Shown: positions 2,416 to 28,252, numbered from the stretch's first letter. The stretch: 64,000 nucleotides of DNA from Hyphomicrobiales bacterium (GCA_965227875.1 OZ245783.1:4978251-5042250), one strand, 5' to 3'. The notes: generated from the sequence alone by a model not told the origin. Numbers and translations: made by a program.

Positions 2416-2919
2416 CTACTTCGACGCAAGGGCCCGAAGCATCCAGATCGCCTTTTCGTGAAACTCCATGCGGGCGGTCAGCATGTCCGCGGTGACGACG
2501 TCGGTCGCGTCTTCGGCGAACTCGACCGTCTCGCGGAAATGGCGCACCACGGCCTCGTGATCCTTGACGAGATTGGAGATCATGTCTTCCGTCGACGTGT
2601 CGTCGGACTTGTCTTCGCTGACGACGGACCTGCCTGCGAGACGCACGATGCTGGTCGGCGCGGGACGACCGAGGGCGCGCACGCGCTCGGCGATGTCGTC
2701 GGCGGCCTTGAACAGGTTCTCGTAGTGCTCTTCCGTCAGGACGTGGAAGGAATGAAACAGCGGTCCGACCACGTTCCAGTGGTAGGCCTGCGTCTTGGTC
2801 ATGAGCAGATAGGTGTCGGCCAGGCAGTCCGACAGCTTTTCCGCCAGTTCGCTCTTCTTCTCCAGTCCGGTATCGACAGCCTCGATGCCGGGGGACATGG
2901 CGAGAATGTTCTCGGTCAT
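2416..2919 (-). CDS. dps: Dps (DNA starvation/stationary-phase protection, ferritin-like)
   Basis: Internal start M86 of ORF 2416..3174: MTENILAMSPGIEAVD...AYHWNVVGPLFHSFHVLTEEHYE...DDIAERVRALG. An AGGAG RBS lies upstream. The longer ORF start would overlap the promoter region. Confidence 0.9.
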   Translation of the reverse strand: MTENILAMSPGIEAVDTGLEKKSELAEKLSDCLADTYLLMTKTQAYHWNVVGPLFHSFHVLTEEHYENLFKAADDIAERVRALGRPAPTSIVRLAGRSVVSEDKSDDTSTEDMISNLVKDHEAVVRHFRETVEFAEDATDVVTADMLTARMEFHEKAIWMLRALASK

Positions 2920-3041
2920 GAGATAAGTACTCCTCTTTACGTGGATCTTGCTCGCGGCCGTCCGGGTCTCCCGTGTCGAGCGCGGTTCCAGAAAACCGGC
3001 CGAAGCAACAGACTTGGTCGCGCGACACGCTCGATGAAAAG

Positions 3042-3066
3042 AACGTGCCGGGATGGCGGGAGTTCC
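3042..3066 (-). promoter_or_regulatory. EcfG-type promoter, GGAAC-N16-CGTT (perfect), upstream of dps
   Basis: Plus strand reads AACG (3042-3045), 16 nt, GTTCC (3062-3066), which is GGAACtcccgccatcccggcaCGTT on the minus strand. It lies about 120 nt upstream of the dps ATG. Confidence 0.7.
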
Positions 3067-3134
3067 GAGAAACCACGGGGTGCGACGACCTGTCGTTCCG
3101 TCACGACAATCATCAAAACAATCTGCACGAAGGT

Positions 3135-3159
3135 GGAACCATTCCGGCGCTGTCGTGTT
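3135..3159 (+). promoter_or_regulatory. Candidate EcfG-type promoter, GGAAC-N16-TGTT (one mismatch), upstream of the OsmB-like lipoprotein gene
   Basis: GGAAC at 3135-3139, a 16-nt spacer, TGTT at 3156-3159. It lies 48 nt upstream of the ATG at 3207 and is divergent from the dps promoter. Confidence 0.35.
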
Positions 3160-3206
3160 GTCCGATCGTAGCAACGACGCACAAGGCCAAAAGGAGCAAG
3201 GATCAA

Positions 3207-3419
3207 ATGAAAAAACTGTCTCTGGCCGGAGTTCTCACGGCTTGTCTCATGACCGCGGCCTGTTCGGGTCTCTCGACGACCGACCAGCGCGTCCTCAGCG
3301 GCGGTGCAATCGGCAGCGGCATCGGCGCTCTCGCAACCGGTAGCGTAGGCGGTGCGGCCGCCGGCGGTGCCATCGGCGCAGGTGCCGGTTATCTCTACGA
3401 CCGCAGCAAGCGCAACTGA
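3207..3419 (+). CDS. Small glycine-zipper lipoprotein (OsmB / 17-kDa-antigen-like)
   Basis: MKKLSLAGVLTACLMTAACSG lipobox followed by the Gly-zipper GGAIGSGIGALATGSVGGAAAGGAIGAGAG. AAGGAG RBS. Internal start of ORF 2973..3419. Confidence 0.75.
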   Translation: MKKLSLAGVLTACLMTAACSGLSTTDQRVLSGGAIGSGIGALATGSVGGAAAGGAIGAGAGYLYDRSKRN

Positions 3420-3455
3420 CCGTCAGACGTAATTACCGTTCGATCCAGGACGAAA

Positions 3456-3488
3456 ACGGCTCGGGTTTCAGACCCGGGCCGTTTTTTT
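3456..3488 (+). terminator. Rho-independent terminator
   Basis: cggctcgggt-ttcag-acccgggccg hairpin followed by TTTTTTT. Confidence 0.7.
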
Positions 3489-3693: not shown

Positions 3694-4248
3694 CTAGAGT
3701 GCGGCGATGCGCGACAGAACGGTTTCCGAAGTCGCGTCCGGTCCGTACTCGTCCTCCGACTTGATGTCGAGGCGCTTGGCGAGTTCGACACGCGCCCGGC
3801 TGACACGGCTCTTGATCGTACCCATGGCCACGCCGCAGATCTCGGCGGCTTCTTCATACGAGAAACCGGATGCGCCCACGAGGACGAGTGCCTCGCGCTG
3901 GTTGTCCGGCAGTTCGGCCAGCGCCTTCTTGAAGTCGCGCAGGTCCATGTGCCCGTCCTGGTGCGGGTGAACGGCGAGTTGTTCGGAAAAACTGCCTTCC
4001 ACGTCCTGGACTTCGCGGCGGCGTTTCCTCACCTCGGAAAAGAAATGGTTTCGCAGGATGGTGAAGAGCCAGGCCTCGAGGTTGGTGCCCTCCTTGAAGG
4101 ATCCGATGTTGGCCCAGGCCTTGACGATCGCCTCCTGGACGAGGTCGTCGGCGCGGTCGCGGTTCCCGGATAACGAGACCGCAAAGGCACGCAGTCGAGG
4201 TACGGCAGCGATGATGTCCCGCTGCAGGGACTCTGACACTTTGCTCAC
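3694..4248 (-). CDS. ecfG: ECF sigma factor, EcfG (GSR sigma; RpoE2/SigT type)
   Basis: Region 2 DLVQEAIVKAWANIGSFKEGTNLEAWLFTILRNHFFS. Region 4 LPDNQREALVLVGASGFSYEEAAEICGVAMGTIKSRVSRAR. GTG start overlaps the nepR stop (GTGA). Divergent from phyR. Confidence 0.9.
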   Translation of the reverse strand: MSKVSESLQRDIIAAVPRLRAFAVSLSGNRDRADDLVQEAIVKAWANIGSFKEGTNLEAWLFTILRNHFFSEVRKRRREVQDVEGSFSEQLAVHPHQDGHMDLRDFKKALAELPDNQREALVLVGASGFSYEEAAEICGVAMGTIKSRVSRARVELAKRLDIKSEDEYGPDATSETVLSRIAAL

Positions 4249-4439
4249 TTCTTGTTCTGAGCCTCGCCTAACTTGGACAGCAGAGCCATGATCTCGTCGG
4301 GGACAGGTTCGTCCACGATCTCGTCGTGAAGACGCTTGAGGTTTTCGCCGATATGCTTCTGGACACGTCCGTCCAGGCGCGGCGAACCTCCTGCGGACCT
4401 TCCGTCATCCTGAGAACTGTTCATGTTGGTGTCGAACAT
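4245..4439 (-). CDS. nepR: NepR anti-sigma factor
   Basis: 64 aa from internal M59 of ORF 4245..4613: MFDTNMNSS...IGENLKRLHDEIVDEPVPDEIMALLSKLGE, the NepR signature. Lies immediately upstream of ecfG and is coupled to it. Confidence 0.8.
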   Translation of the reverse strand: MFDTNMNSSQDDGRSAGGSPRLDGRVQKHIGENLKRLHDEIVDEPVPDEIMALLSKLGEAQNKK

Positions 4440-4605
4440 TTGGCCCCTTGAATCTTTATCGGCATCTGATGATCTTTTACTCACGAGTGAACCCTGTATG
4501 ATGGCGGGCAGGTCGGATTCAGCCCTGTTTCGATGGATCAACACGTTAGGTCCGAAAAGGTTGCATGGTCCGACATAAATTTTTGAAAAAAGTTTTCTGA
4601 CCAAC

Positions 4606-4631
4606 GGAACCAAACGCGCACGCGATGCGTT
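4606..4631 (+). promoter_or_regulatory. EcfG-type promoter, GGAAC-N17-CGTT (perfect), upstream of phyR
   Basis: GGAAC at 4606-4610 and CGTT at 4628-4631, 50 nt upstream of the phyR ATG. Confidence 0.8.
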
Positions 4632-4681: not shown

Positions 4682-5491
4682 ATGCATGCCGCTGAAGAAA
4701 TCGCAGTTCATATCCCGTTCCTGCGCCGCTATGCCCGCATACTGACCGGCTCCCAGAAAAGCGGGGACACGTATGTCACAAGCCTTCTGCAGGCGATGGT
4801 CGAACAGAAGGTTCAGATCGACGAGCAGTTTTCCGCAAGGGTGGACGTCTACAAGGCCTTCACCGACTTCTGGCAGCCTTTGAACCAGGGCGTGATCTCC
4901 GACGCCGGCATCCCCAGTGACGAGGATGCGAACGTCGACAGGCGCATCGAACAGCTTGCCCCCGCCCCCAGGCAGGCCTTCCTTCTGACATCCGTCGAGG
5001 AATTCACCGAAGAGGAAGCCTGCGCCATACTGGGTGTGTCGGAAGACGAACTCGCCAAGCTTCTCGACAAGGCCGGCGAGGAAATCGCCCGCCAGGTCGC
5101 AACGGAGATCCTGATCATCGAGGACGAGCCGATCATCTCGATCGAGCTCGAGAACCTCGTCAGGTCGCTTGGGCACGGCGTGGTCGGCACGGCGCGCACG
5201 CACAGCGAAGCGCTCCAGGTCATCGAAACCCGCAAACCAGGCCTCGTCCTCGCGGACATCCAGCTCGCCGACGGCAGTTCGGGGATCGATGCTGTGAACG
5301 ACATCCTGCACAAGATCAACCTGCCGGTGATCTTCATCACCGCCTATCCCGAGCGTCTCCTGACGGGTGACCGTCCCGAGCCGGCCTTCCTGATCACCAA
5401 GCCGTTCCGCGAAAACTCGGTGAAGGCCGTGATCAGCCAGGCCCTTTTCTTCGACGTGAAGGCGGGCGAACCGCTTTCCGTGGCGTCCTGA
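4682..5491 (+). CDS. phyR: PhyR anti-anti-sigma response regulator (sigma-like N-domain plus receiver)
   Basis: N-terminal ECF-sigma-like domain (IPFLRRYARILTGSQKSGDTYV...) and C-terminal REC domain (ILIIEDEPIISIELENLV...LVLADIQLADGSSG...ITAYPE). Confidence 0.93.
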   Translation: MHAAEEIAVHIPFLRRYARILTGSQKSGDTYVTSLLQAMVEQKVQIDEQFSARVDVYKAFTDFWQPLNQGVISDAGIPSDEDANVDRRIEQLAPAPRQAFLLTSVEEFTEEEACAILGVSEDELAKLLDKAGEEIARQVATEILIIEDEPIISIELENLVRSLGHGVVGTARTHSEALQVIETRKPGLVLADIQLADGSSGIDAVNDILHKINLPVIFITAYPERLLTGDRPEPAFLITKPFRENSVKAVISQALFFDVKAGEPLSVAS

Positions 5492-5523: not shown

Positions 5524-5548
5524 GGAACTTTCCGGCGGCAACACCGTT
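5524..5548 (+). promoter_or_regulatory. EcfG-type promoter, GGAAC-N16-CGTT (perfect)
   Basis: GGAAC at 5524-5528 and CGTT at 5545-5548, 30 nt upstream of the ATG at 5579. Confidence 0.75.
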
Positions 5549-5578: not shown

Positions 5579-5749
5579 ATGTTAGGTTGGGCCGTAACTT
5601 TCTTCATCATCGCGCTCGTGGCAGCACTCTTCGGTTTTGGCGGTATTGCAGGCGCATCCGCCAGCATCGCGCAGGTGTTGTTCTTCATCTTCCTCGTTGT
5701 CTTCCTCGCATCGCTGGTCATGCATTTCGTCCGGCGAACCGCGAGATAG
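5579..5749 (+). CDS. DUF1328 (UPF0391/YtjA-like) small membrane protein, 56 aa
   Basis: Not in the track (under 60 aa). Manual translation gives [65 protein letters not shown]. Confidence 0.8.
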
Positions 5750-5836: not shown

Positions 5837-7042
5837 TTGCCGCAACGGCGCCCGACCCGGGCGTCACAGTCCGCCGGGGTGTTTCCCCCGGGACCGTTTG
5901 ACCAAATCCGTGGCTGCTCCGTGACACGCAAAGACGATCAATTCGCTCTCCCCCCGAAACAGGCTGTCGGAAGCAGCCGGTTGGAGAGCTTTGATCAGCG
6001 CCTCAGGGATTTGAACGAACACGTGGATCTCGCCATACGCGGAACGAACGTCAGCGTATTCGGCCAGGACCTCGATCTCCGATACACCTGGATCCGCAAC
6101 CCACTCGTGGGCTTCGAACGCGAACAGATGCTGGGCAAGTCGGACGCGGAACTCTTTTCCCCGTCCGTCGCCGCCGCGCTGACCCGTGTCAAACGGGCCG
6201 CCATCGACAGGAACGAGACACAGTTTGCTGAAGTTGAGATGTATCACGACGGAAAACATCGCTGGTTCGAGCTCTGGGCCGACCCCGTCTCTTCGCAGAC
6301 GGGTACGGTCGAGGGCCTTGCATGCGCCGCCGTCGAGATCACGTCCCGAAAGCAGGACGAGGAGCAGATGCGCACCCTCCTGCTGGAACTCAATCACCGG
6401 AACAGGAATCTCCTGTCCGTCATCGAAGGCATCGCACGACAGACCGGTCGTGACTCCGGCGACATCAAGAATTTTCTCCGAAGGTTCAGCGGAAGGCTTC
6501 ACAGCCTGTCGATCACGCAGCTCCTCCTCACGGAAAGCAACTGGAAGGGCGCGGGCATGCGGGCCCTGCTCAAGAAGCAGATCAAGGGCGTGGACAATGT
6601 CGACCTCTCCCGGTTCACCTTTCACGGTCCCGATATCGTCGCTGGTCCCAATGCGACCCAGTATCTTGGTCTCGCCATTCATGAACTGACCAACAACGCC
6701 CTCCAGCATGGCGCCCTGTCCGCCGCGGAGGGGACGGTGACCGTCACGTGGAAGTACTCGTCCGGCGCGCCGGATTCGCCGGAAAGACCGGGGATCGAGT
6801 TCCACTGGAAGGAAACCGGCGGCCCGAACGTTTCGCCACCTACGGAAAAGCGCTACGGAAGATCCATCCTGGAAGCGATCCTGCCGCGCTCCCTGAGTGC
6901 AAGTTCGACCCTGATCTTCGGTGGCGATGGCGTCTCCTTTTCCGCCTTCATCCCGGTGCGAGAACTCCATATCTCGGCTGAGCGAATCGTCGAGCTGGAA
7001 ACCGAAGACACGGGCCGGTCCCGCTCGTCCGACGCGGACTGA
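5837..7042 (+). CDS. PAS-domain HWE/HisKA_2-family sensor histidine kinase (candidate PhyR kinase)
   Basis: H-box LLELNHRNRNLLSVIEGIARQT and N-box LAIHELTNNALQHGAL, with a PAS-like N-terminal half. The start is uncertain (TTG 5837, GTG 5921 or TTG 5981). Confidence 0.8.
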   Translation: MPQRRPTRASQSAGVFPPGPFDQIRGCSVTRKDDQFALPPKQAVGSSRLESFDQRLRDLNEHVDLAIRGTNVSVFGQDLDLRYTWIRNPLVGFEREQMLGKSDAELFSPSVAAALTRVKRAAIDRNETQFAEVEMYHDGKHRWFELWADPVSSQTGTVEGLACAAVEITSRKQDEEQMRTLLLELNHRNRNLLSVIEGIARQTGRDSGDIKNFLRRFSGRLHSLSITQLLLTESNWKGAGMRALLKKQIKGVDNVDLSRFTFHGPDIVAGPNATQYLGLAIHELTNNALQHGALSAAEGTVTVTWKYSSGAPDSPERPGIEFHWKETGGPNVSPPTEKRYGRSILEAILPRSLSASSTLIFGGDGVSFSAFIPVRELHISAERIVELETEDTGRSRSSDAD

Positions 7043-7064: not shown

Positions 7065-7089
7065 GGAACCATTCGGCCCGCTTCACGTT
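7065..7089 (+). promoter_or_regulatory. EcfG-type promoter, GGAAC-N16-CGTT (perfect)
   Basis: GGAAC at 7065-7069 and CGTT at 7086-7089, 51 nt upstream of the ATG at 7141. Confidence 0.75.
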
Positions 7090-7140: not shown

Positions 7141-7515
7141 ATGAAAAAGTTTCTCATGACGACCGCCACCGTTGCGCTGTTTGCGCTTTCGGTCCCGGCA
7201 CACGCCAACGAGCAGTGCACGACACCCGACGAAGCCGCCAAGATGACGGAAACGGACGCCACGGCGAACCAGGACGCGTCCGCCCAGGCTTCCGCCTCGC
7301 AGGAAACCGAGACGGCAGGGACCTCCGCTGAAGCCGAGGCGTCGGTGAACGCCCAGGCTTCCGCCGAGGCCGAAACGCCCGACAAGGTCGTGGACGAGAT
7401 CGTCGAGAATGCCAAGGAAGCCGAAGACGGGACCAAGGTCGCCTCGACCGGACCGGCAAAACCGGTTGAAAACTGGTTCGGCTGTCCTCCCGAAGGCAAG
7501 GCCACGACCGGCTGA
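7141..7515 (+). CDS. Exported acidic low-complexity protein (unknown family)
   Basis: Signal peptide MKKFLMTTATVALFALSVPAHA and an A/E/T/S-rich body. AAGGAG RBS. Confidence 0.7.
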   Translation: MKKFLMTTATVALFALSVPAHANEQCTTPDEAAKMTETDATANQDASAQASASQETETAGTSAEAEASVNAQASAEAETPDKVVDEIVENAKEAEDGTKVASTGPAKPVENWFGCPPEGKATTG

Positions 7516-7624: not shown

Positions 7625-8986
7625 ATGAACGATCACACTGGCGCCCGGAACGAGCTGGGCGACATTCTTGCATCCGTCGAAGACCGCAATCCGCACCAGC
7701 CCGAATTTCTCCAGGCGGTCCGGGAAATGGGCGCATCGGTTGCCGACTGGTATCTTGAACAGGCGGACCTGGTTGAGGCCCGCATATTCGAGCGCCTGAC
7801 GGAACCCGACCGCGCCATTCAGTTTCGCGTGGTCTGGGAAAACGACGACGGACAGCTCGAGGTCAACCGCGGGTGGCGCATCCAGTTCTGCCAGGCGCTG
7901 GGGCCTTACAAGGGTGGTCTGCGCTTTTCCGGAAGCGTCGATGAAAGCGTCCTGAAGTTTCTTTCTTTCGAGCAGACGTTCAAGAACGCCCTGACCGGCC
8001 TGCCCATGGGCGGGGCGAAAGGCGGTTCCGACTTCGACCCCAAAGGACGAAGCACCGGTGAAATCACGCGTTTCTGCCACGCGTTCATGACCGAACTCTT
8101 TCATCACATCGGCCCGGACAAGGACATTCCTGCCGGCGACATCGGGGTCGGCCCGGACGAGATAAGTGCCATGTTCGGCCACTACTTGAAGCTCACCCGA
8201 ACCTGGAACGGCGCCCTGACGGGCAAGGGCTGCCGTTTCGGTGGCAGCGCCGAACGCACCGAAGCGACCGGATATGGCTGCGTCTATTTCTGCGAAGAGA
8301 TGCTGGGCCATCACGACAAGTCCCTCGAAGACAAGAGAATAGCGATATCCGGAAGCGGCAACGTGGCTCTTCACGCGGCCCAGAAAGCCTGCTCGAAGGG
8401 AGCGAAAGTGGTCACCATGAGCGACTCCGGTGGGTTCATATTCACCGGTGACGGTCTTTCGAAGGAGCTTCTCGACGAACTCCACGAAGCGAAGACCGTA
8501 CAGAAGAAGCGCCTCGAGGAGTTCGCCGCGGATCACAAGGACCTGGAGTTCCACGAGGGCGATGCGCCATGGTCGGCCGAGTGCGATATCGCCATGCCCT
8601 GCGCCACGCAGAACGAACTCGACGATGACGCTGCAAGGCAGCTTGTCGACAACGGCGTTATTGCCGTCTGTGAAGGGGCGAACATGCCCGTGACGGCAGA
8701 CGCCGCGGACGTGTTCCGCGAGCATCACATCCTTCATGCGCCGGGCAAGGCGTCGAATGCCGGCGGCGTCGCGGTCAGCGGCATGGAGATAAGCCAGAAC
8801 GCCTTGCGCCAGTCATGGTCGTTCGAGGAGGTCGACGAGAAGCTCACGCGGGTCATGGCCAACATCCACCGTCAGTGTGTCGAAGCCGGTCCGAGCGGTG
8901 GAGATCGTGTCGACTACGTCAGGGGCGCCAACCTAGCAAGTTTCCAGAAAGTCGCGAAAACGCTGGCATCGTTCGGGCGTTTCTAA
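7625..8986 (+). CDS. gdhA: NADP-specific glutamate dehydrogenase
   Basis: Internal M73 of ORF 7409..8986. Motifs GPYKGGLRF, LPMGGAKGGSDFDPKG, DIPAGDIGVG, GSGNVA and ANAGGVAVSGMEISQN. Confidence 0.93.
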   Translation: MNDHTGARNELGDILASVEDRNPHQPEFLQAVREMGASVADWYLEQADLVEARIFERLTEPDRAIQFRVVWENDDGQLEVNRGWRIQFCQALGPYKGGLRFSGSVDESVLKFLSFEQTFKNALTGLPMGGAKGGSDFDPKGRSTGEITRFCHAFMTELFHHIGPDKDIPAGDIGVGPDEISAMFGHYLKLTRTWNGALTGKGCRFGGSAERTEATGYGCVYFCEEMLGHHDKSLEDKRIAISGSGNVALHAAQKACSKGAKVVTMSDSGGFIFTGDGLSKELLDELHEAKTVQKKRLEEFAADHKDLEFHEGDAPWSAECDIAMPCATQNELDDDAARQLVDNGVIAVCEGANMPVTADAADVFREHHILHAPGKASNAGGVAVSGMEISQNALRQSWSFEEVDEKLTRVMANIHRQCVEAGPSGGDRVDYVRGANLASFQKVAKTLASFGRF

Positions 8987-9002: not shown

Positions 9003-9027
9003 GGAACCATTATCGCCCTCACGAGTT
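9003..9027 (+). promoter_or_regulatory. Candidate EcfG-type promoter, GGAAC-N16-AGTT (one mismatch)
   Basis: GGAAC at 9003-9007, preceded by a T8 run, and AGTT at 9024-9027. It begins 17 nt after the gdhA stop codon. Confidence 0.35.
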
Positions 9028-9032: not shown

Positions 9033-9143
9033 GATGTGCCAGCGGATGACGTTATCCCCCCTCCCCCCTCGAACGGTGTTCGCCGGCACATCTGAATCAT
9101 TCAGATACCCTCTTGCCCCGGCGACCGCGCCGGGGCATTTTTT
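9033..9143 (+). ncRNA. Candidate ~110-nt sRNA with an 18-nt C-rich loop (GsrN/'cuckoo'-like), ending at the gdhA terminator
   Basis: P1 pairs gtgccagcg (9036-9044) with cgccggcac (9081-9089). An inner cgtt/aacg stem closes the loop AUCCCCCCUCCCCCCUCG (9054-9071). P2 is tctga-atcat-tcaga (9091-9105). P3 is the terminator at 9115-9143. This is a prediction only. Confidence 0.3.
9115..9143 (+). terminator. Rho-independent terminator
   Basis: gccccggcg-accg-cgccggggc followed by ATTTTTT. Confidence 0.75.
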
Positions 9144-9158
9144 CCGGCCCTCAGCAAC

Positions 9159-9824
9159 ATGACGAACGGTGATCACGAAACCGGCTCGATGCGGTTCCTG
9201 CTGAGGCGGGAGACGCGAAAGGTGCATGCCGCCCTGGACGCGATGCTTGCCCGGCAGGGCATGTTTTCCTCGCTCGGAGCCTACCTGCACTATCTCCACG
9301 TCCAACACGACGAGTTCCTGTCCTACGAAGGACAGGCCGGCAAACTGTCCGCCGAACTTGGACTGCACTGGTGGCCCGGATCGGTCCGTTCGTCTCTCAT
9401 CCGGGACGACATTGACGGCTTGACCCCGGAAAGTTCGAACGCCGGCAGCCCGCGGCGAACCGGAGAGGACTGCACCTCGGGGGCGACCGGACTTCCGGAA
9501 TTCGCGGGGCGCAGCTATGTCATGGAAGGCTCGCAGCTCGGCGGGCCGTTTATCCGGAAAATGCTTCGGAAGTCGGACGTTCTGGACGAGGATGGGTGCG
9601 CGTTTCTCATGTGGACCGGCACGAACGACAACAACTGGCAGCGATATTGCGGCTGGCTGGACACCCTTCATCTGGCGGAGCTTGAACAAGAGCAGGCAAT
9701 ACATGCCGCACACGAGACTTTCGAGCGCTATATTGACCTCTTCGACGGTATGCGCGAGACAGAAACGACATCGAGGTCGCTTTCACCGCGTCCCGATCGC
9801 GATTTGACGGCAAATGTATCGTAG
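9159..9824 (+). CDS. bphO: Heme oxygenase (biliverdin-producing, BphO type)
   Basis: MRFLLRRETRKVHAALDAML (proximal-His helix signature). About 220 aa. Lies directly upstream of the bacteriophytochrome gene. Confidence 0.8.
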   Translation: MTNGDHETGSMRFLLRRETRKVHAALDAMLARQGMFSSLGAYLHYLHVQHDEFLSYEGQAGKLSAELGLHWWPGSVRSSLIRDDIDGLTPESSNAGSPRRTGEDCTSGATGLPEFAGRSYVMEGSQLGGPFIRKMLRKSDVLDEDGCAFLMWTGTNDNNWQRYCGWLDTLHLAELEQEQAIHAAHETFERYIDLFDGMRETETTSRSLSPRPDRDLTANVS

Positions 9825-9932
9825 TTAAAAGACAGGGGGCAGATTGGCTGTTAGTCAGTTGACAGGAGAGCGTGCGCTGTCACGGGCATCGGCCGTCGCA
9901 GCTCCTGAAAATAAGAACAATTCAGGATCCAT

Positions 9933-12588: not shown

Positions 12589-12747
12589 CTAGGGCTGCAG
12601 GATTCCGTACCCGTCGACCGATGCGTTGAAGCCGTTCGCAATCGGTACGCAGGCACTGGCAAACGTCAGCGCCAGTGGAAATGCAATGAGCACGATTTTC
12701 ATCTGTGCGGACAGGCGTGACCGCCCGCTTCCGGTCTTCATTTTCAT
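12589..12747 (-). CDS. Possible small lipoprotein (52 aa)
   Basis: Manual translation gives MKMKTGSGRSRLSAQMKIVLIAFPLALTFASACVPIANGFNASVDGYGILQP, with lipobox FASAC. The RBS is weak and the start is ambiguous. Confidence 0.4.
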   Translation of the reverse strand: MKMKTGSGRSRLSAQMKIVLIAFPLALTFASACVPIANGFNASVDGYGILQP

Positions 12748-17845: not shown

Positions 17846-18805
17846 ATGACCGAAACGCCCACGTCGCGATATGCGAGCCGCCCGTCCGAAATCCAGCGGG
17901 ACGACTGGAAATCGGCGGCATCGACGGCGCTGTTCAACGTGCTCGACGAGAACATCAGTCTGCGCTGCGCCGGCGTGGCCTTCTTCGGAGTCCTTTCGCT
18001 GTTCCCGGCCCTTGGCGTCGCCGTGCTGTTGATCGGGTTGATCGCGGACCTGGCGACACTGCAGCAGAACCTTGCCGCATTAAGCTCCTTCATGCCCGCA
18101 TCCGTCTACGACATGCTTTACGACCAGGTCACGACGGTCGGGAAAGCATCCGACACCAGCCTCGGGATCGGACTTGTCTTCACGTTGGCTCTCGGCCTGT
18201 GGAGTGGATCCCGCGGCATCAACGCCCTGATCTCACTGGTCGGGGTTACCTACAAGGAAGACAACGGCCGCGGCATGATCATGAGCGCCGTCGTCTCGAT
18301 CCTGTTTCTCCTCGGCGCCTCGTTTTTCACGATGGCCCTGCTCGCGGCCATAGCCGCGACCCCCATCGTTCTCGATCTCCTGCCGGGCTCCACCTGGCTG
18401 GCCCTGCTGATCAGCATTCTGCGCTGGCCTGCCATCGCACTGTGTGTCTTTGCGGCGATCGCCTGCCTCTACAAGTACGCGCCGCATCGCCGCTCCGCCC
18501 AGTGGCGCTGGGTGGCACCGGGCGCCATCGCGTCAGCGTCCCTGTGGCTGGTCGCCTCCGCGCTCTTCTCTCTCTATGTCGACCAGTACGCTGACTACAA
18601 CGCTACGTTCGGCTCGATCGCAACGGCCGTCGTCCTGCTGCTCTGGTTCTACTATTCCGTGATGACCATCGCCTTCGGGGCGGAACTCAATGCGCAGCTC
18701 GAACTCCGGACCCGCCGCGATTCCACAGTCGGGCCGTCCAGACCAATGGGCGAACGGGGCGCATACGTGGCCGACAACATGAGCTCGGCGACAAGCAGAT
18801 CCTGA
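17846..18805 (+). CDS. YihY/BrkB family membrane protein
   Basis: LRCAGVAFFGVLSLFPAL, six TM helices, and YSVMTIAFGAELNAQL. Confidence 0.88.
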   Translation: MTETPTSRYASRPSEIQRDDWKSAASTALFNVLDENISLRCAGVAFFGVLSLFPALGVAVLLIGLIADLATLQQNLAALSSFMPASVYDMLYDQVTTVGKASDTSLGIGLVFTLALGLWSGSRGINALISLVGVTYKEDNGRGMIMSAVVSILFLLGASFFTMALLAAIAATPIVLDLLPGSTWLALLISILRWPAIALCVFAAIACLYKYAPHRRSAQWRWVAPGAIASASLWLVASALFSLYVDQYADYNATFGSIATAVVLLLWFYYSVMTIAFGAELNAQLELRTRRDSTVGPSRPMGERGAYVADNMSSATSRS

Positions 18806-19017: not shown

Positions 19018-19473
19018 TCAGCCGCGGTAGCCGTACATTTCAAGTACCGCATCGGCGTGGGTCGAACACTTGTCTTCGTTGCCGTTCCTGAGGGCCTGTT
19101 TCGCCATGTCGAGCTGCTTCTTGGCTTTCACTTCATCGACGCGCGGCGTCAGATCAGCGGGGCGGTTCGACTGCTTGAAACCGGCGAGCGGATCGGTGCC
19201 CGCAGACGACTGTCCCGTCTCGGGAACCGCAGCCTTGTCGCCGGCCGTCAGTTTTTCGCTGTTCTTGACGCCGGCCTTCAGGTCGACTTCGGCCGTTGCG
19301 GGCGGGTTCGGATCGGTTTTCGTTTCCTTGCGCTCGCCACCGGCCATGGCGTTGTCATTCATCATAAGCTTGGCTTCGAGAGCGTTGACCTTCTCTTCGC
19401 AGGTGAACGCGGCTGCCGGAGCGGCCATTGCAAAGGACGCTGCTACGGACAGGGCCAATACGGAAATACGCAT
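19018..19473 (-). CDS. Exported protein of unknown family
   Basis: Signal peptide MRISVLALSVAASFAMAAPAAA. AAGGAG RBS. Cys residues near both ends. Confidence 0.7.
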   Translation of the reverse strand: MRISVLALSVAASFAMAAPAAAFTCEEKVNALEAKLMMNDNAMAGGERKETKTDPNPPATAEVDLKAGVKNSEKLTAGDKAAVPETGQSSAGTDPLAGFKQSNRPADLTPRVDEVKAKKQLDMAKQALRNGNEDKCSTHADAVLEMYGYRG

Positions 19474-19552: not shown

Positions 19553-19577
19553 AACGGCTGTCCCATGGCGAAGTTCC
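19553..19577 (-). promoter_or_regulatory. EcfG-type promoter, GGAAC-N16-CGTT (perfect)
   Basis: Plus strand reads AACG (19553-19556), 16 nt, GTTCC (19573-19577). It lies 80 nt upstream of the ATG at 19473. Confidence 0.7.
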
Positions 19578-19801: not shown

Positions 19802-20002
19802 TTACTGGATCGTACGCGCCCACTCGTTGACTTCACGCTCGACATCGTCCTTCGCCATGCCATAGCGTTCCTGGATGCGGCCGACGAGCTGTTCGCGGTT
19901 TCCTTCGATCTGGTCGACCTCGTCATTGGTCAGCTTGCCCCATTTCTCCTGGACCTGGCCGGTAAGCTGACTCCATTTTCCTTCGATGATGTCCCAGTTC
20001 AT
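19802..20002 (-). CDS. csbD: CsbD-family general stress protein
   Basis: Internal M32: [56 protein letters not shown]. Confidence 0.88.
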
Positions 20003-20035: not shown

Positions 20036-20061
20036 AACGCGGGCGATGGCCGAAGAGTTCC
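20036..20061 (-). promoter_or_regulatory. EcfG-type promoter, GGAAC-N17-CGTT (perfect)
   Basis: Plus strand reads AACG (20036-20039), 17 nt, GTTCC (20057-20061). It lies 34 nt upstream of the csbD ATG. Confidence 0.75.
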
Positions 20062-20994: not shown

Positions 20995-21156
20995 TCAGCG
21001 CCGCGCGATGATCCAGATCGCATGAACGATGCCGGGAATATACCCGAGGATCGTCAACAGGATGTTCAGCCAGAAATGAAGGCCGATCCCGACCTGGAGA
21101 AACACGCCAAGCGGCGGCAGAAGTATCGAAAGCAGTACCCTGATCAAGTCCATCAT
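20995..21156 (-). CDS. Pmp3/YqaE (UPF0057) stress proteolipid, 53 aa
   Basis: Not in the track. Manual translation gives MMDLIRVLLSILLPPLGVFLQVGIGLHFWLNILLTILGYIPGIVHAIWIIARR. Confidence 0.8.
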   Translation of the reverse strand: MMDLIRVLLSILLPPLGVFLQVGIGLHFWLNILLTILGYIPGIVHAIWIIARR

Positions 21157-21200: not shown

Positions 21201-21225
21201 AACGCACACGTGTCGCATTGGTTCC
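21201..21225 (-). promoter_or_regulatory. EcfG-type promoter, GGAAC-N16-CGTT (perfect)
   Basis: Plus strand reads AACG (21201-21204), 16 nt, GTTCC (21221-21225). It lies 45 nt upstream of the pmp3-like ATG. Confidence 0.75.
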
Positions 21226-21284: not shown

Positions 21285-21309
21285 GGAACAATTCCTGGCC
21301 GCAAGCGTT
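21285..21309 (+). promoter_or_regulatory. EcfG-type promoter, GGAAC-N16-CGTT (perfect)
   Basis: GGAAC at 21285-21289 and CGTT at 21306-21309, 31 nt upstream of the ATG at 21341. Confidence 0.75.
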
Positions 21310-21340: not shown

Positions 21341-21823
21341 ATGACACGAACCATGTATGCGATCTACACCGCACTGTTCGTCGCGGGCCTTGTGATCGGC
21401 GCAAGCGCGCCGCCGGCGTTCGCGTCGCCCCGGATCGAGGTCGGCGTGCTCAATTGTACCGTATCGGGAGGTACGGGCTTTATCGTCGGGTCGACCAAGA
21501 GCCTCGACTGCACTTTCAAGCGTCCCGGACAGAACGAAACCTACCAGGGCACAATCAAGAAATTCGGCGTCGACATCGGCACGACGAGCAAGTCCTACAT
21601 CTCTTGGGCTGTCTTCGCGCCAACGAAAGACGTGCCGCCCGGCGCCCTTTCGGGGTCTTACGGCGGCCTGACCGCCGAAGCGACCGCCGGTGTGGGCCTT
21701 GGGGCAAACGCTCTTATCGGCGGTTCGTCGGAATCGCTGGCGCTCCAGCCGTTGAGCGTGCAGGCCCAGCAGGGACTGAACGTTGCCGTCGGCATCGCCT
21801 CCCTGGAGCTTTCGCTCAAATAG
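21341..21823 (+). CDS. DUF992-like exported protein
   Basis: Signal peptide, then IEVGVLNCTVSGGTGFIVGSTKSLDCTF...LTAEATAGVGLGANALIGGS...LQPLSVQAQQGLNVAVGIASLEL. Confidence 0.8.
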   Translation: MTRTMYAIYTALFVAGLVIGASAPPAFASPRIEVGVLNCTVSGGTGFIVGSTKSLDCTFKRPGQNETYQGTIKKFGVDIGTTSKSYISWAVFAPTKDVPPGALSGSYGGLTAEATAGVGLGANALIGGSSESLALQPLSVQAQQGLNVAVGIASLELSLK

Positions 21824-21934: not shown

Positions 21935-23284
21935 GTGAACATATCGGTCAGACAAATCCTTCAGGACCTGAAGACGAGCTTCTTCGTTTATCCGGCCATC
22001 CTCGTCATCTCCGCAATCGGGCTCTCGTATCTCGTCGTCAGCTTTGACGAAACGAGCCGCGGCGCGGCGGTCGCGCAGTGGCTTCCCATGCCAAAGATGC
22101 AGGTGGACGGTGCGCGGTCCATCGTCGTCACGATCGCCAGCGGCATGATCACTGTCGCGGCTCTGGTTTTTTCGCTCACTTTCGTCGCGATTTCGCAGCT
22201 TTCCCAGCAACTTGGGCCCCGGATCCTGCTGTCCTTCATGAAGGATGCGGTGACGAAGACCACGCTCGGCGTGTTCCTGGCGATTTTCGTCTACGCACTT
22301 CTCGTCCTCAGCACGATCGGCTCGGGAGAGAACTGGGACTTCGTACCCCTCCTCTCGGTCTACCTCGCCTGCATGCTGGCCGTCGTCGCCTTCGGCTTCA
22401 TGGTGTTCTTCGTCCATCATATCGCGAGGACGATGCAGGCCGATGTCGTCGTGGCCGGCCTCGGAGAGGACCTCGCCGGCGCTTTCGACCGCCTCGTCCG
22501 CGCCTCGCAAAGGAACGGCAGCGAATTCAGCGCCAAGGCCTCTGAAAAGGCGCACGCGGAGATCGTCGGGAGGATAAGAGATGGCGCGCACCTGGCCATC
22601 GACTCTCCCGCTACCGGCTACATTCAGGTCATCGACCTGCACGAGGCGGCCAGGATCGCACGGGATGGCGACATGGAGATCGCCTTTCTTCATCGGCCGG
22701 GGCATTTCGTGCTCGCCGGCTCCGCCGTGGCGGTGGCGACGATGCGGCCGCGTGACGGGCAGGACGATCGTCCGGACGATGACGAACTGTGCGACCAGCT
22801 CCGGGCCACGTTCGCCGTCGGTGAGCTGCGCACTCCGGCGCAGGAGGCCGAGTTCGAGACGAATGCGCTCATCGAGGTTGCCTTGCGCGCCCTGTCACCC
22901 GGGGTAAACGATCCGTTCACCGCCATTGCGTGCATCGACCAGCTGACCGGCGGTCTGTCGCGCCTCATCGGCACCGACACACTGCCGTTTGTGCTGCACG
23001 ACGAGGACGGCAACCCGCGCGTCTTTCCTTATCCGCAGGACTTCGCGCATTTCATCAAGACGGCCTTCCATCCGCTACGGGATGCTGCCAAGTCGAACCC
23101 CCTCGTGCTCATTCATCTTACCGGCGCCCTGCTTCTCCTCCACAGGCAGGCCGGAGAAGGAGAGCGCAGACCGATCGCCGCGCATGCGGAGGATCTCTGG
23201 AAGGACGCCCAGGCCCACATCGGGAACGCGACCGATCTCGATCTCGTGCACCGGCGCCTGACGCCAATTCTCGGACAGGACTGA
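21935..23284 (+). CDS. DUF2254-like membrane protein
   Basis: GTG start with a GGAGG RBS. Four N-terminal TM helices and a soluble C-terminal domain. Confidence 0.7.
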   Translation: MNISVRQILQDLKTSFFVYPAILVISAIGLSYLVVSFDETSRGAAVAQWLPMPKMQVDGARSIVVTIASGMITVAALVFSLTFVAISQLSQQLGPRILLSFMKDAVTKTTLGVFLAIFVYALLVLSTIGSGENWDFVPLLSVYLACMLAVVAFGFMVFFVHHIARTMQADVVVAGLGEDLAGAFDRLVRASQRNGSEFSAKASEKAHAEIVGRIRDGAHLAIDSPATGYIQVIDLHEAARIARDGDMEIAFLHRPGHFVLAGSAVAVATMRPRDGQDDRPDDDELCDQLRATFAVGELRTPAQEAEFETNALIEVALRALSPGVNDPFTAIACIDQLTGGLSRLIGTDTLPFVLHDEDGNPRVFPYPQDFAHFIKTAFHPLRDAAKSNPLVLIHLTGALLLLHRQAGEGERRPIAAHAEDLWKDAQAHIGNATDLDLVHRRLTPILGQD

Positions 23285-25041: not shown

Positions 25042-25137
25042 TGTCGTTCACCGAGTTTTCTGAAGTGGACCCTACGGGGGGGCAACGCACCAGGGCGGAA
25101 AAGGATGCAAAAAGGCGGTGAAAAAACTGGGTTCTGC

Positions 25138-25162
25138 GGAACAACACGGCGGGCTTCGCGTT
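25138..25162 (+). promoter_or_regulatory. EcfG-type promoter, GGAAC-N16-CGTT (perfect)
   Basis: GGAAC at 25138-25142 and CGTT at 25159-25162, 33 nt upstream of the ATG at 25196. Confidence 0.75.
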
Positions 25163-25195: not shown

Positions 25196-25645
25196 ATGCC
25201 GGCACACAGCACCGAAATCCTCAACAGGACAATCCGGCTCCTCATCGACAGCCACCTCGCCTACCTGAAGGCCCTCGAAATGTCGGATGACGATCACCGT
25301 CTCGTCGAAGCCTTTCGCAATCGTTCCGCGGAACGGCAGAAACTGATCGCGGAACTTCAGGGTCTTGTTCGCGCAAGCAACGAAACCCCGGCGGAAGAAG
25401 GCAGCGCCATCGGCACCCCCAACCGCGGCTTCGAGGATTTTCTCGACTTGTTTCGCGATAACGAAAAGGCTGCACTGGAGAACCTCAAACAAGGCGAAGA
25501 GGACGTTGCAGCGAAGATCGAGGAGGAACTCGGCAACGCGGAACTGACCGACGAGGAAAGAAGGCTGATGGAGCGCGCGGTGCGGGCCGCCCGTGAAGGC
25601 AGCGAGTTCGTCGATCACCGGCTGGCCGCGGTCCAGACCGCGTAG
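25196..25645 (+). CDS. PA2169/DUF2383-like four-helix-bundle (ferritin-like) protein
   Basis: ILNRTIRLLIDSHLAYLKALE...GSAIG...NLKQGEEDV spacing pattern, ~150 aa. Confidence 0.6.
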   Translation: MPAHSTEILNRTIRLLIDSHLAYLKALEMSDDDHRLVEAFRNRSAERQKLIAELQGLVRASNETPAEEGSAIGTPNRGFEDFLDLFRDNEKAALENLKQGEEDVAAKIEEELGNAELTDEERRLMERAVRAAREGSEFVDHRLAAVQTA

Positions 25646-25681: not shown

Positions 25682-27373
25682 ATGCATGAAAACCTGAAAG
25701 AGCGGGAAAGTCCGCTCAAGGAACCCGAGATCGGCGGCGTGCCCTTCCTGCCCGGAAACGAGCTCGTGCCCCTGATCGAGGCCGAGGAGACATTCGCCGA
25801 AATCGAAGCGGCCATCGTCAAGGCCCGACATAGCGTGCACCTGGCGTACTGGACGATCGATCCGGCCCTCAGGATCACCTCGGACGTGACGTCGCACAAC
25901 CATTGGGCCGGACTCCTGCAGGGTGCGGCGTCCCGCGGGATCGACGTAAGGGTGGCCATCGCGGATTTCGACCCGGTTCTCGGCTTCGATTTCCACTTCG
26001 ACGCCTGGTCGACATACGCGCGGTTCATGGACCTGAGAGCGGAGCTCGACGAGGAGAGCCAACGCCGGCTCCAGGTCATCTGCTCACGGCACGATGCAAC
26101 CGTCGGATGGCTCGTCCAGGCGGCCGGCCAACCGATCATTCGCCGAAAACTTGACGAGGCCGTCGCACGGCTTAACGACCGGTCAGCCGACAAGGACGGT
26201 TCCGACCTTACGCAGTTGCTGCGTCGCGCGCCCGGCCTTTGGCCCTACGTGAAAATTCGGGACGGCCGTCTCACAGCACGGCACAGCGCGTTTCCGACGG
26301 TCCTTCCGGCCGCACACCACGAGAAGCTCTGCGTCATCGACGACGATACCGTCTTCCTTGGGGGACTTGATCTCGACGAACGACGTTTCGACACGAGAGA
26401 TCACGATGCGGATCTTGCATGGCACGACTTGTCCTGCCGCTTAAGGGGACCGGCCGCCCGCCAGTTTGCAATTCACTTCCGGCAGAGATGGAATCGCGAG
26501 CTTGAGGATTTCAGATCGGTCGTCTCTGCGCTCAAGCCGCCCGGAGACGTGGCTCCCTGGAAAATCCCGGATGGTCTCGGCAACTTGCCGGACCTGCCCG
26601 ACCCCGATCCCGAAACAACCTTTCCAGGCAACAAGATGGTGGCGCCGCTGCGCACCATATCGAGGCAGCACAAGTCGAGCTTTTCAAGAAGTCCCGAAAC
26701 GCGCGTTTCGGAAATCCGGGACGCTTACCTCGAAGCGATCGGCAATGCACAACGGCTGATCTACATAGAAAACCAGTTCATCCGCAGCCGGACCATCGCG
26801 GAGGCCCTCGCCAGCCGGGCCAAAGAACAACCCGAACTGGAAGCCATCATTCTGCTCCCCGTTCTGCCCCAGTCGATTCTCGAAGAGGATGCAAGCGACA
26901 GGGCAACGCGCATGGGCCAGTGGCTGCAGGCCGAAGCTCTCGACATTCTGCGCGCTTCGTTCGGAGAACGTATCGGGCTCTATTCTCTCAAACGTGCCGG
27001 CGACTCCCTTTCGCCCGAGACGAAGACGCTCGAGGAGATCCTGCGCGACAGTGTCTACTCGCATTCGAAGGCCATGATCGTGGACGACCGGCTCGCCCTG
27101 CTCGGTTCTGCCAACCTTAACGACCGCAGTCTCCTCACCGATACGGAGACGGCGATCGCGTGGCGCGACGAACCGTCAGTCACGTCGTTTCGCAACCGGC
27201 TGTGGCAGCGCCATCTCGGAACCGAGACCACGTCCTGGACAGACCGGTTCACGCAAAGATGGCGCGATGTGGTCGACCTGGGAGGAAATGATTGTTTTGC
27301 CTTCCCCCTCGGCGAGGCGGCAATCAGGTTCAGGGCCGAACGATCGACACTTGTACCGCACGAACTCGTGTGA
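25682..27373 (+). CDS. Phospholipase D / cardiolipin-synthase-like protein (two HKD motifs)
   Basis: HHEKLCVIDDDTVFLGGLDL and SHSKAMIVDDRLALLGSANLNDRS. Confidence 0.88.
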   Translation: MHENLKERESPLKEPEIGGVPFLPGNELVPLIEAEETFAEIEAAIVKARHSVHLAYWTIDPALRITSDVTSHNHWAGLLQGAASRGIDVRVAIADFDPVLGFDFHFDAWSTYARFMDLRAELDEESQRRLQVICSRHDATVGWLVQAAGQPIIRRKLDEAVARLNDRSADKDGSDLTQLLRRAPGLWPYVKIRDGRLTARHSAFPTVLPAAHHEKLCVIDDDTVFLGGLDLDERRFDTRDHDADLAWHDLSCRLRGPAARQFAIHFRQRWNRELEDFRSVVSALKPPGDVAPWKIPDGLGNLPDLPDPDPETTFPGNKMVAPLRTISRQHKSSFSRSPETRVSEIRDAYLEAIGNAQRLIYIENQFIRSRTIAEALASRAKEQPELEAIILLPVLPQSILEEDASDRATRMGQWLQAEALDILRASFGERIGLYSLKRAGDSLSPETKTLEEILRDSVYSHSKAMIVDDRLALLGSANLNDRSLLTDTETAIAWRDEPSVTSFRNRLWQRHLGTETTSWTDRFTQRWRDVVDLGGNDCFAFPLGEAAIRFRAERSTLVPHELV

Positions 27374-27468
27374 ATCTGGATATGATGGAGGGGTGCAGGC
27401 ACCGCCCGCCTGCTGGAATTGCCTCTGGAGACGGATCGGGCGGTGGATTGCAATGCGAGGAAAATCGG

Positions 27469-27618
27469 ATGAAAGAAAAGAAAAGCGGACCGCCGGTCCT
27501 CTATTTCGTGGTTGGCCTGCTCGTGGCCGTGGTGATCGGCATGGCCTACTACATCTACGACCAGTCGACGAACAAGGCGGATCTCGAGATCAAGATCGAT
27601 GTGCCCGGAACGGATTGA
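27469..27618 (+). CDS. Possible small single-TM protein (49 aa)
   Basis: MKEKKSGPPVLYFVVGLLVAVVIGMAYYIYDQ... Moderate RBS (GAGGAAAA). Confidence 0.4.
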   Translation: MKEKKSGPPVLYFVVGLLVAVVIGMAYYIYDQSTNKADLEIKIDVPGTD

Positions 27619-27654
27619 TTGATCCGCTCCGTCACCTTCGGAGCGACGATACCC

Positions 27655-27837
27655 TTACAGGGCGACGTTGTTGCATGGGCAACCCTCGTGCCCGCACCCC
27701 TTGATGGAGGGGTCGGCGCACTGGGCGTTGCAGTAAACCCGGCCGTCCTCGCGATAACCGGTGCCCTTCGGCACGGTGCAGGTGCATGCGGCGTTGGCGC
27801 ATGGTTGCGGTGCGGTTTCCGAATGAAGGTCGGACAT
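27655..27837 (-). CDS. Bacterial metallothionein (SmtA/BmtA-like)
   Basis: CANAACTCTVPKGTGYREDGRVYCNAQCADPSIKGCGHEGCPCN, a Cys/His pattern matching the SmtA family. Start at M5 with a GGAGAG RBS. Confidence 0.65.
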   Translation of the reverse strand: MSDLHSETAPQPCANAACTCTVPKGTGYREDGRVYCNAQCADPSIKGCGHEGCPCNNVAL

Positions 27838-27849
27838 CTGTCTCTCCAA

Positions 27850-28200
27850 TCAGTTGTTTCGGGTCAGCGAAATACCCATGATCCGGTACTTGCCGTCTTC
27901 TGCCTTGACCACCCCGCAGCGTCGCGCGGAGTTGAGCCAGTTGTTCCACTTGAGGCACAACATCCCGTTGTCGAAGATCTTCCAGACGCCCGTGTCCTTG
28001 TCGTCTCCGTATCGGCCGACAAGCTTGCCGGAGGGCATCACCTTGATGGTCAGATCCTCTCCGTAGAGCTGTCCTTCGAAGGTGCCGTGAATGTCCGTGC
28101 CGACGCGTGCCTCGCTCAGCGAGGCAGCATTCGCGCCTGTTACGACGCTCGTACCGACGATCGCGGCCATGAACAGAGTGCGAAACTTAAGACAGATCAT
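27850..28200 (-). CDS. Exported protein (possibly DUF995-like)
   Basis: Signal peptide ...AAIVGTSVVTGANA and the motif GVWKIFDNGMLCLKWNNW...RRCG. GGGAGA RBS. The stop abuts the metallothionein ORF. Confidence 0.7.
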   Translation of the reverse strand: MICLKFRTLFMAAIVGTSVVTGANAASLSEARVGTDIHGTFEGQLYGEDLTIKVMPSGKLVGRYGDDKDTGVWKIFDNGMLCLKWNNWLNSARRCGVVKAEDGKYRIMGISLTRNN

Positions 28201-28227
28201 CTTTCCATATCTCCCGTATGTCTGCGC

Positions 28228-28252
28228 AACGCATTAACCGTGAAACGGTTCC
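28228..28252 (-). promoter_or_regulatory. EcfG-type promoter, GGAAC-N16-CGTT (perfect)
   Basis: Plus strand reads AACG (28228-28231), 16 nt, GTTCC (28248-28252). It lies 27 nt upstream of the ATG at 28200. Confidence 0.75.

Follow-up and report, generated by a model that had tools for sequence, protein, structure and literature searches.

An extended array of predicted EcfG promoters at the general stress response locus of an isolated Hyphomicrobiales lineage

Introduction

Why should the targets of a global regulator gather beside the regulator itself? This testable question is raised by a 64,000-nucleotide stretch of the chromosome of a Hyphomicrobiales bacterium (GCA_965227875.1, OZ245783.1:4978251-5042250; here called the window and numbered from its first letter), which carries the general-stress-response (GSR) genes nepR, ecfG and phyR. 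The partner switch among PhyR, NepR and EcfG, a sigma factor, has been reviewed (PMC8103513). An original prediction, made by reading the sequence, had listed eleven perfect copies of the EcfG promoter consensus GGAAC-N16/17-CGTT around these genes and had proposed that regulators and targets form a co-inherited stress module. Here we ask whether the array exceeds chance, whether it is peculiar to this genome and whether it behaves as an inherited unit.

Results

EcfG-type sites are concentrated around the GSR core

In the core of the locus, nepR (4245-4439, minus strand; Pfam NepR PF18557, E=1.2e-11; also called as a gene in the contig of the sister strain introduced below) stands directly upstream of ecfG (3694-4248, minus; Sigma70_r2 1.3e-15, Sigma70_r4_2 2.1e-15, PhyR_sigma2 6.8e-11) in the same orientation, and the two genes overlap by 4 bp in an operon at 3694-4439. 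The divergent phyR (4682-5491, plus; PhyR_sigma2 1e-19, PhyR_sigma-like 4.6e-21, Response_reg 6.6e-14) is followed at close distance by a gene for a PAS-HWE histidine kinase (5921-7042, plus; PAS_4 and HWE_HK, 3.6e-20) without an EcfG site of its own. The Pfam matches thus confirm a GSR core in which nepR-ecfG and phyR diverge and a PAS-HWE kinase gene is close by, and they agree with the gene names first given to its neighbors (Dps, DUF1328, CsbD, Pmp3, DUF992 and others). Annotated PhyR proteins share 55-60% identity with this PhyR, 86 columns being invariant, and a search of 5.8 billion proteins returned no homologue of 60-100% identity. The lineage is therefore an isolated one.

The whole window was scanned on both strands for exact matches to GGAAC-N16/17-CGTT, and the number expected by chance was taken from 100 dinucleotide-preserving shuffles of the window. 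Twelve perfect matches were found against 1.46 expected (standard deviation 1.32); none of the 100 shuffles held twelve, the maximum being six. All twelve fall between 3.0 and 29.5 kb and none in 29.6-64 kb. For this 26.5-kb block, in which 0.60 matches are expected, the Poisson probability of at least eleven is 6e-11, so that the dense array of EcfG-type promoters claimed to flank the GSR core is indeed beyond chance. The scan recovered all eleven sites listed in the original prediction, each at its position and on its strand; every one is intergenic and co-oriented with the next gene, whose start codon follows 27-122 nt downstream.

When near-consensus sites and a degenerate site before nepR (both described below) are counted together with the perfect ones, an EcfG-type site precedes about 16 of about 21 transcription units at 2.2-28.6 kb and none of about nine units elsewhere in the window (Fisher P=1.4e-4). 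The other 34.5 kb of the window, which has no intergenic site, served as the in-genome control.

Flanking bases and a sister strain support the sites

The fixed bases of the consensus were complemented by a flank-only matrix, built from the variable positions around 306 perfect sites in 80 other genomes and independent of the window because it was trained on those genomes. The flanks yield the extended consensus GGAAC-C-(A/T)-T-T ... G-CGTT-T-T. Random window positions score on average -1.71 with this matrix (standard deviation 2.27, 99th percentile 3.70), and the eleven intergenic perfect sites average +1.68. The twelfth match, GGAAC-N16-CGTT at 29485-29509 (plus), lies antisense inside cydB and is nearly palindromic, with a one-mismatch site on the opposite strand at 29487-29511. 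We rejected it as a promoter and judge it a chance match because it is intragenic and its score of -4.93 is below the null mean; about 1.5 chance matches per window are expected.

Relatives carrying the block comprise one sister strain of 98% identity (a Logan contig of run DRR378781, L001/L082, spanning window positions 1888-31213) and two metagenome fragments, all too close for footprinting beyond a test of the fixed positions. Intergenic divergence between the window and the sister strain is 3.6-4.3%, at which 6.0 changes would be expected among the 153 fixed -35 and -10 positions of 17 candidate sites; none was found (P=0.0024). All five differences that do fall within sites, those of the dps site included, are at spacer positions. 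A third line of support comes from gene families: DUF1328, CsbD, DUF992, AI-2E, DUF883-like and PRC-barrel genes repeatedly stand behind perfect sites in other genomes as well.

Taken together, these results make it hardly credible that the matches reflect chance or base composition instead of promoters. A chance origin would account for the one or two matches expected in any such window, and the one in cydB looks like an instance, but not for a count that no shuffle approached, for the placement of all eleven remaining sites in oriented intergenic positions at promoter-like distances from start codons, for flanks that resemble those of foreign EcfG sites, for fixed positions that are invariant in the sister strain, or for the contrast of 16 of 21 units in the block with 0 of 9 elsewhere.

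Clustering of EcfG sites near phyR is general in Hyphomicrobiales

The original prediction set the clustering against EcfG regulons that are generally described as dispersed. As a comparison we took the best 80 phyR-centered loci, each extending 10 kb to either side, from different other Hyphomicrobiales species (1,396 kb in total). These contain 306 perfect sites where 19.6 are expected from base composition, or about 30 at the dinucleotide-shuffle rate of the window, an enrichment of 10-16 fold. Sixty-six of the 306 belong to phyR or nepR. Expressed per 10 kb, the density peaks at phyR with 9.4 sites just upstream of the gene; it is 2-4.5 as far as about 4 kb, about 1.6 at 5-7 kb and, close to background, 0.3-0.7 at 8-10 kb. 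The first open reading frames (ORFs) behind the sites encode PhyR (39), NepR (27), DUF883/ElaB-like proteins (23, the commonest non-regulator family), DUF1328, CsbD and PRC-barrel proteins (11 each), DUF992 proteins (9), kinases (8) and AI-2E transporters (5).

Clustering of EcfG promoters around the GSR core is thus a general feature of the order and not a peculiarity of this genome, and the window is a high-end, unusually long example of it. The 47 full-length survey loci hold from 0 to 10 sites each, with a median of four per 20 kb and four loci at 9-10. Within 10 kb of phyR the window has four perfect sites, equal to that median; in any 20.8 kb it has at most nine, at the top end of the range. 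One survey locus is denser than the window: a Hyphomicrobium sp. metagenome-assembled genome (JANOKZ010000230.1, 1765-17369) has 17 perfect sites in 19.4 kb, standing before genes for DUF883-like, PRC-barrel, NepR, DUF1328, PhyR, YciF-like, two CsbD, AI-2E and small membrane proteins. We call the array of the window unusually long because eight of its perfect sites are 11-24 kb away from phyR, farther out than the point by which the mean survey density has decayed. As for the dispersal of EcfG regulons, experimentally defined regulons are mostly scattered, but the description is incomplete given the enrichment at phyR. In the accessible reviews and regulon papers we found no statement that further EcfG targets cluster at the GSR locus.

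The adjacent ecfG is the probable source of the sigma factor

Both phyR and nepR-ecfG are known to be transcribed from EcfG promoters (PMC4814048; PMC8103513). In the window, phyR follows a perfect N17 site (4606-4631, plus) whose distance to the ATG at 4682 is 50 nt. For nepR-ecfG there is a candidate with two mismatches, GCAAC-N16-TGTT at 4540-4564 (minus), 100 nt 5' of the nepR ATG; it has a flank-only score of +5.97, is identical in the sister strain and may tentatively be regarded as the autoregulatory promoter of the operon.

One could suppose that these are genuine promoters used chiefly by another sigma factor, for example an EcfG paralogue encoded at an unlinked locus or an extracytoplasmic function (ECF) factor of overlapping specificity, with the adjacent ecfG a bystander or one contributor among others. 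There is precedent: the several EcfG paralogues of many Alphaproteobacteria overlap in the promoters they use (PMC8103513; PMC7083833), and RpoE6 (ECF26) of Sinorhizobium meliloti resembles RpoE2 in its motif and has targets in common with it (PMC6180224). The deviant site before nepR-ecfG would fit such a scheme. On the other hand, the motif is the canonical ECF15/EcfG consensus, Pfam scans of the window revealed no second sigma factor gene, and the survey density peaks at the phyR and ecfG genes across 80 genomes, which ties the motif to this regulator. We consider a principal role for another sigma factor unlikely.

The block does not behave as a mobile or conserved unit

If the block were inherited as a module, its genes should recur together. 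By tblastn of the window proteins against the 80 survey loci, ecfG was found near phyR in 76 and an HWE kinase in 51. DUF1328 recurs in 29 loci and is preceded by a perfect site in 18 of them. AI-2E was found in 16 loci, six times behind a site, and DUF992 in 14, nine times behind a site; Crp was found in 10 loci, and Dps, CsbD and BrkB each in 3-4. The survey loci, which reach 10 kb to either side of phyR, gave no match to the bacteriophytochrome (BphP), heme oxygenase, glutamate dehydrogenase, DUF1206, PAP2, PLD, DUF2383, Pmp3, metallothionein or orphan exported proteins. The genes around phyR thus vary from locus to locus, with some taken from a common pool, and do not form a conserved block. 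The co-inherited stress module of the original prediction is not borne out: only DUF1328, DUF992, AI-2E, CsbD and Dps recur, and the block as a unit was found in none of the 80 loci, the sister strain and the two metagenome fragments being its only other carriers.

A horizontally acquired island that moves as one module would agree with the slightly lower G+C of the region (about 0.59-0.63 in 2-32 kb compared with about 0.61-0.69 in 32-64 kb), with the unrelated metabolic genes on both sides (DUF2126/transglutaminase to the left and cydABX to the right) and with the several targets that are orphans without a Pfam family. Yet the lower G+C can be explained by the 16% of intergenic DNA and the many short genes of the block, which sits on a 5.3-Mb chromosome. 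No tRNA was found in the window, Pfam scans of the window gave no integrase, transposase or conjugation genes, and we found neither direct repeats bounding the block nor repeats linking its promoter regions. A megablast search of 2416-27400 against 72,556 plasmids gave four short, irrelevant matches. We therefore rejected a plasmid or mobile origin, and with none of the 80 other phyR loci sharing content beyond a few recurrent small families, the island explanation is very improbable. The variable gene content and the lack of island signatures favor gradual accretion over a ready-made island.

Transcription units behind the perfect sites

Besides phyR, ten transcription units follow a perfect intergenic site; the operon extents given here are predicted. 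To the left of the core, dps (2416-2919, minus) has its site at 3042-3066 (minus), 122 nt from the ATG at 2919. Directly after phyR, the site at 5524-5548 (plus) is 30 nt from DUF1328 (5579-5749), with the PAS-HWE kinase gene downstream. The site at 7065-7089 (plus) is 51 nt from a gene (7141-7515) for an acidic, orphan exported protein of 124 amino acids with a visible signal peptide; glutamate dehydrogenase (7625-8986) is next.

Farther from the core, the site at 15784-15808 (minus) precedes a predicted minus-strand operon whose members are assigned by Pfam: an AI-2E transporter (14479-15729), PAP2 (13705-14358) and DUF1206 (12867-13691). The AI-2E start codon is at 15729 or 15690, giving a distance of 54-93 nt. 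An exported orphan of 151 amino acids (19018-19473, minus) lies 79 nt from its site at 19553-19577, and csbD (19802-20002, minus, 66 amino acids) lies 33 nt from an N17 site at 20036-20061 with a flank-only score of +4.54. The csbD gene is a direct GSR target in Sphingopyxis granuli (PMC7083833). The pmp3/yqaE site (21201-21225, minus; gene 20995-21156, 44 nt; flank-only +5.66) is back to back with that of DUF992 (21285-21309, plus; gene 21341-21823, 31 nt), after which comes DUF2254 (21935-23284).

Near the right end of the block, the site at 25138-25162 (plus) precedes DUF2383 (25196-25645, 33 nt) and a gene for a PLD-family protein (25682-27373), and the site at 28228-28252 (minus; flank-only +3.14) precedes an exported orphan of 116 amino acids (27850-28200, 27 nt). 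Directly 3' of the latter and in the same orientation is a prokaryotic metallothionein gene (PF02069, 64 amino acids, 27655-27849, minus), whose place behind a perfect site suggests that metal buffering is part of the GSR in this lineage.

Further genes recognized by Pfam in the block encode a Crp-family regulator, a GATase/amidoligase pair, BrkB, a heme oxygenase and a bacteriophytochrome. The orphan targets, including those of 52, 46 and 180 amino acids described in the next section along with the 124-, 151- and 116-residue proteins, gave no credible Pfam match at E<=1. Metabolic genes flank the block on either side, DUF2126/transglutaminase on the left and cydABX on the right; cydX (28629-28766, minus, 45 amino acids, Pfam YbgT_YccB), 3' of cydAB, is its right border.

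Near-consensus and doubtful sites

Thirty-seven one-mismatch matches occur in the window, few of which combine an intergenic position, a fitting orientation and a high flank score. They are unevenly spread, with 31 in 1-32000 and 6 in 32001-64000; about five are plausible degenerate promoters, and the remaining skew may come from the lower G+C of the first half of the window. The four one-mismatch sites of the original prediction (3135, 9003, 12838 and 15889) are all present, and a fifth, at 28562-28586, had been missed.

Four of these five (3135, 9003, 12838 and 28586) have flank-only scores above the 99th percentile of the null. GGAAC-N16-TGTT at 3135-3159 (plus; +6.46; the same in the sister strain) precedes a Gly-zipper lipoprotein gene of 70 codons (3207-3419), and GCAAC-N16-CGTT at 12814-12838 (minus; +6.16) precedes a lipoprotein-like ORF of 52 amino acids (12589-12747), which is called in the sister contig and contains a lipobox-like FASAC sequence. 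The site overlooked before, GGAAC-N16-GGTT at 28562-28586 (minus; +4.64), is the right edge of the block and stands 39 nt from an ORF for a 46-residue protein with a single transmembrane segment (28382-28522), which gene calling in the sister contig likewise recovered. The site at 9003 is taken up in the next section.

The weakest of the five, GGAAC-N17-TGTT at 15889-15914 (plus), lies 36 nt 5' of an ORF of 180 codons (15951-16493) with an AGGAG ribosome-binding site. The protein is a coiled coil with a C-terminal transmembrane anchor; it has no significant Pfam DUF883 match and a single weak BLAST match to a DUF883-like protein at another locus (E=6e-4). Downstream on the same strand are a holin-X/YqjE-like gene (Phage_holin_3_6, 16512-16895), DUF3618 (16892-17770) and BrkB (17846-18805).

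Four or five of the one-mismatch sites retain the AAC triplet. In S. granuli, GGAAC and then GCAAC are the two most frequent -35 boxes, AAC hardly varies and the -10 box tolerates change (PMC7083833), and the variants seen here agree with those data. Candidates with two mismatches before crp, the HWE kinase gene, glutamate dehydrogenase, BrkB and DUF2254 were rejected for poor flank scores. Another, GCATC-N16-CGTT at 25084-25108 (minus), 42 nt 5' of the amidoligase-GATase pair, scores +4.85 and is doubtful.

A candidate small RNA between glutamate dehydrogenase and heme oxygenase

The near-consensus site GGAAC-N16-AGTT at 9003-9027 (plus; one mismatch; flank-only +6.19), 3.5 kb from phyR, lies ahead of the gene for heme oxygenase, which together with the bacteriophytochrome gene (domains PAS2-GAF-PHY-HWE_HK-REC) occupies 9159-12533 (plus). 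We rejected it as the promoter of these genes. Before the heme oxygenase ATG at 9159 stands an intrinsic terminator (9114-9137) whose G+C-rich hairpin of 10 bp leads into a T-run to about 9145, and because of this strong terminator the site most likely drives a candidate small RNA (sRNA) of about 110 nt (about 9034-9146, plus) and not heme oxygenase. In the predicted fold, a 5' hairpin whose 18-nt loop is C-rich (UCCCCCCUCCCCCCUCGA) is followed by a smaller hairpin and then by the terminator; for 9034-9146 its minimum free energy is -49.1 kcal/mol (z=-6.5), a stability that no sequence among 200 shuffles reached. Window and sister strain are 100% identical over the 173-nt intergenic region containing the sRNA, where the background divergence is 4.3%.

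The criteria by which Tien et al. (2018) recognized GsrN-like RNAs are an EcfG site near the locus, an exposed C-rich loop in a 5' hairpin and an intrinsic terminator (PMC5869019). The element of the window has these features, closeness to phyR among them, and differs from GsrN-like RNAs in its additional middle hairpin. About 15 of the 80 survey loci contain an analogous element, with an EcfG site, an RNA of 80-100 nt, a hairpin with a C-rich loop and a terminator, and in several of them the loop sequence is nearly the same as that of the window. Comparison by nhmmer with the elements of other loci did not demonstrate homology (E=2.5), a covariance model of nine GsrN-like elements from other loci matched the loop only (9050-9075, 10.7 bits, E=3.2), and an Rfam search of 1-32 kb gave no match above threshold, with weak anti-hemB (22 bits) and Flavi SL6 matches that we ascribe to chance. 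The likeness to the GsrN family is thus architectural, and we make no claim of homology.

The heme oxygenase ATG is 13 nt past the T-run of the terminator, and no promoter of its own was found for this gene. The heme oxygenase-BphP pair may provide a red/far-red light input to PhyR, or may be expressed through read-through of the terminator.

A giant ORF outside the block

Unrelated to the GSR block, a giant ORF of about 2,944 amino acids at 52329-63904 (minus) contains about seven diverged repeats of about 1 kb together with RTX calcium-binding nonapeptide repeats. It adjoins genes for HlyD-family and ABC-exporter proteins, and its product is probably an adhesin or RTX protein secreted by the type I route.

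Discussion

The reading that we favor with considerable confidence is that 2.2-28.6 kb is the chromosomal GSR locus of an isolated Hyphomicrobiales lineage with a long sigma-EcfG promoter array, a strong instance of a clustering that is general in the order and has built up by accretion. By analogy with the known partner switch, stress-sensing HWE/HisKA2 kinases, for which the adjacent PAS-HWE kinase and perhaps the bacteriophytochrome are the candidates here, would phosphorylate PhyR, phospho-PhyR would titrate NepR, and the freed sigma-EcfG would take RNA polymerase to GGAAC-N16/17-CGTT promoters. About 16 units of the block would then fire together: phyR, probably nepR-ecfG from its degenerate site, dps, the Gly-zipper lipoprotein gene, DUF1328 (possibly with the kinase gene), csbD, pmp3, DUF992-DUF2254, AI-2E-PAP2-DUF1206, the ElaB/YqjD-like-YqjE-like-DUF3618 operon, DUF2383-PLD, the exported protein with metallothionein, several small exported or membrane orphans and the GsrN-like sRNA.

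Several points weigh against this reading. The window scan revealed no consensus EcfG site before nepR-ecfG, and the site at 15889, with an unremarkable flank-only score of just +0.34, is the least certain of those counted. That the sites are promoters dependent on EcfG is a prediction from sequence, with transcription and dependence presumed. The background density of this genome was gauged from 34.5 kb of the window only, and the rarity of the 26-kb extent is judged against loci that span 10 kb to either side of phyR. Gradual accretion of regulon members beside the regulator, finally, is what we infer from variable gene content and not from a reconstructed history.

What keeps such sites together is a separate matter. 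The clustering could be selectively neutral, the locus being a hotspot for gene gain or promoter capture with no benefit of co-regulation or co-transfer. Gene content around phyR is highly variable among lineages, many targets are short orphans, and experimental regulons are mostly dispersed, with scattered locus tags in S. granuli (PMC7083833) and S. melonis, all of which would suit a neutral origin. An enrichment of 10-16 fold that decays smoothly from phyR in 80 species is nevertheless hard to obtain without a proximity bias, and the promoter regions share no sequence similarity, so that simple promoter duplication is not their source. We regard neutrality as somewhat unlikely, if a serious contender. 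Placement of the sigma factor beside a sizeable share of its regulon could instead be a selected architecture in Hyphomicrobiales, a growing regulon hub that recruits stress genes and a GsrN-like sRNA; this is a speculative proposal that we hold to be rather unlikely. Were it true, induction might be faster or stronger close to where the sigma factor is made, or the genes might be inherited jointly through recombination, and this genome would be extreme, with perhaps 15-20% of its direct EcfG units in one 26-kb stretch.

Whatever the cause, the block provides a high-confidence list of about 16 predicted direct GSR targets, among them orphan exported proteins, a metallothionein, a PLD-family enzyme and a candidate sRNA, in a lineage without a cultured close relative (its nearest PhyR is 60% identical). 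The 10-16 fold enrichment of EcfG promoters within about 7 kb of phyR also offers a cheap route to prediction in unstudied genomes, where conserved GSR effectors such as DUF1328, CsbD, DUF992, DUF883-like, PRC-barrel and AI-2E proteins and GsrN-like sRNAs could be predicted by neighborhood.

The system itself is the well-known GSR and no new kind of system; the enrichment near phyR across the order is a modestly new general observation. The layout of the unit at 15951-17770 recalls the sigma-S-dependent yqjD-yqjE-yqjK operon of Escherichia coli: a coiled-coil anchored protein, a YqjE-family protein and then DUF3618 follow a putative general stress promoter, though one for a different sigma factor. 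Canonical GSR loci, such as those of S. granuli, Caulobacter (sigT-nepR/phyR-phyK), Erythrobacter litoralis and Rhizobium etli, have the same three regulators, and share with the window the nepR-ecfG overlap, the divergent phyR and the adjacent kinase of HWE/HisKA2 type (here PAS-HWE), as well as GGAAC-N17-CGTT before phyR and the same consensus before effectors such as csbD (PMC8103513; PMC7083833). For EcfG promoters at these canonical loci, the accessible published descriptions name the regulators and the neighboring kinase only, whereas in the window the motif precedes at least 14 other units within 26 kb. GsrN-like sRNAs close to the GSR locus have also been described. The window also departs from them in the nepR-ecfG operon without a consensus site, and from other GSR loci in the bacteriophytochrome and heme oxygenase genes inside the block, a pair that no survey locus has within 10 kb of phyR. 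In having targets that adjoin the sigma and anti-sigma genes it resembles typical ECF sigma factors with small local regulons, such as most S. meliloti ECFs (PMC6180224). Unlike these, EcfG is a global regulator, with 79 direct transcription units in S. granuli (PMC7083833), so the local array is presumably only a fraction of the regulon; by extrapolation, if the regulon is the size of that in S. granuli, the block would hold about a fifth of it.

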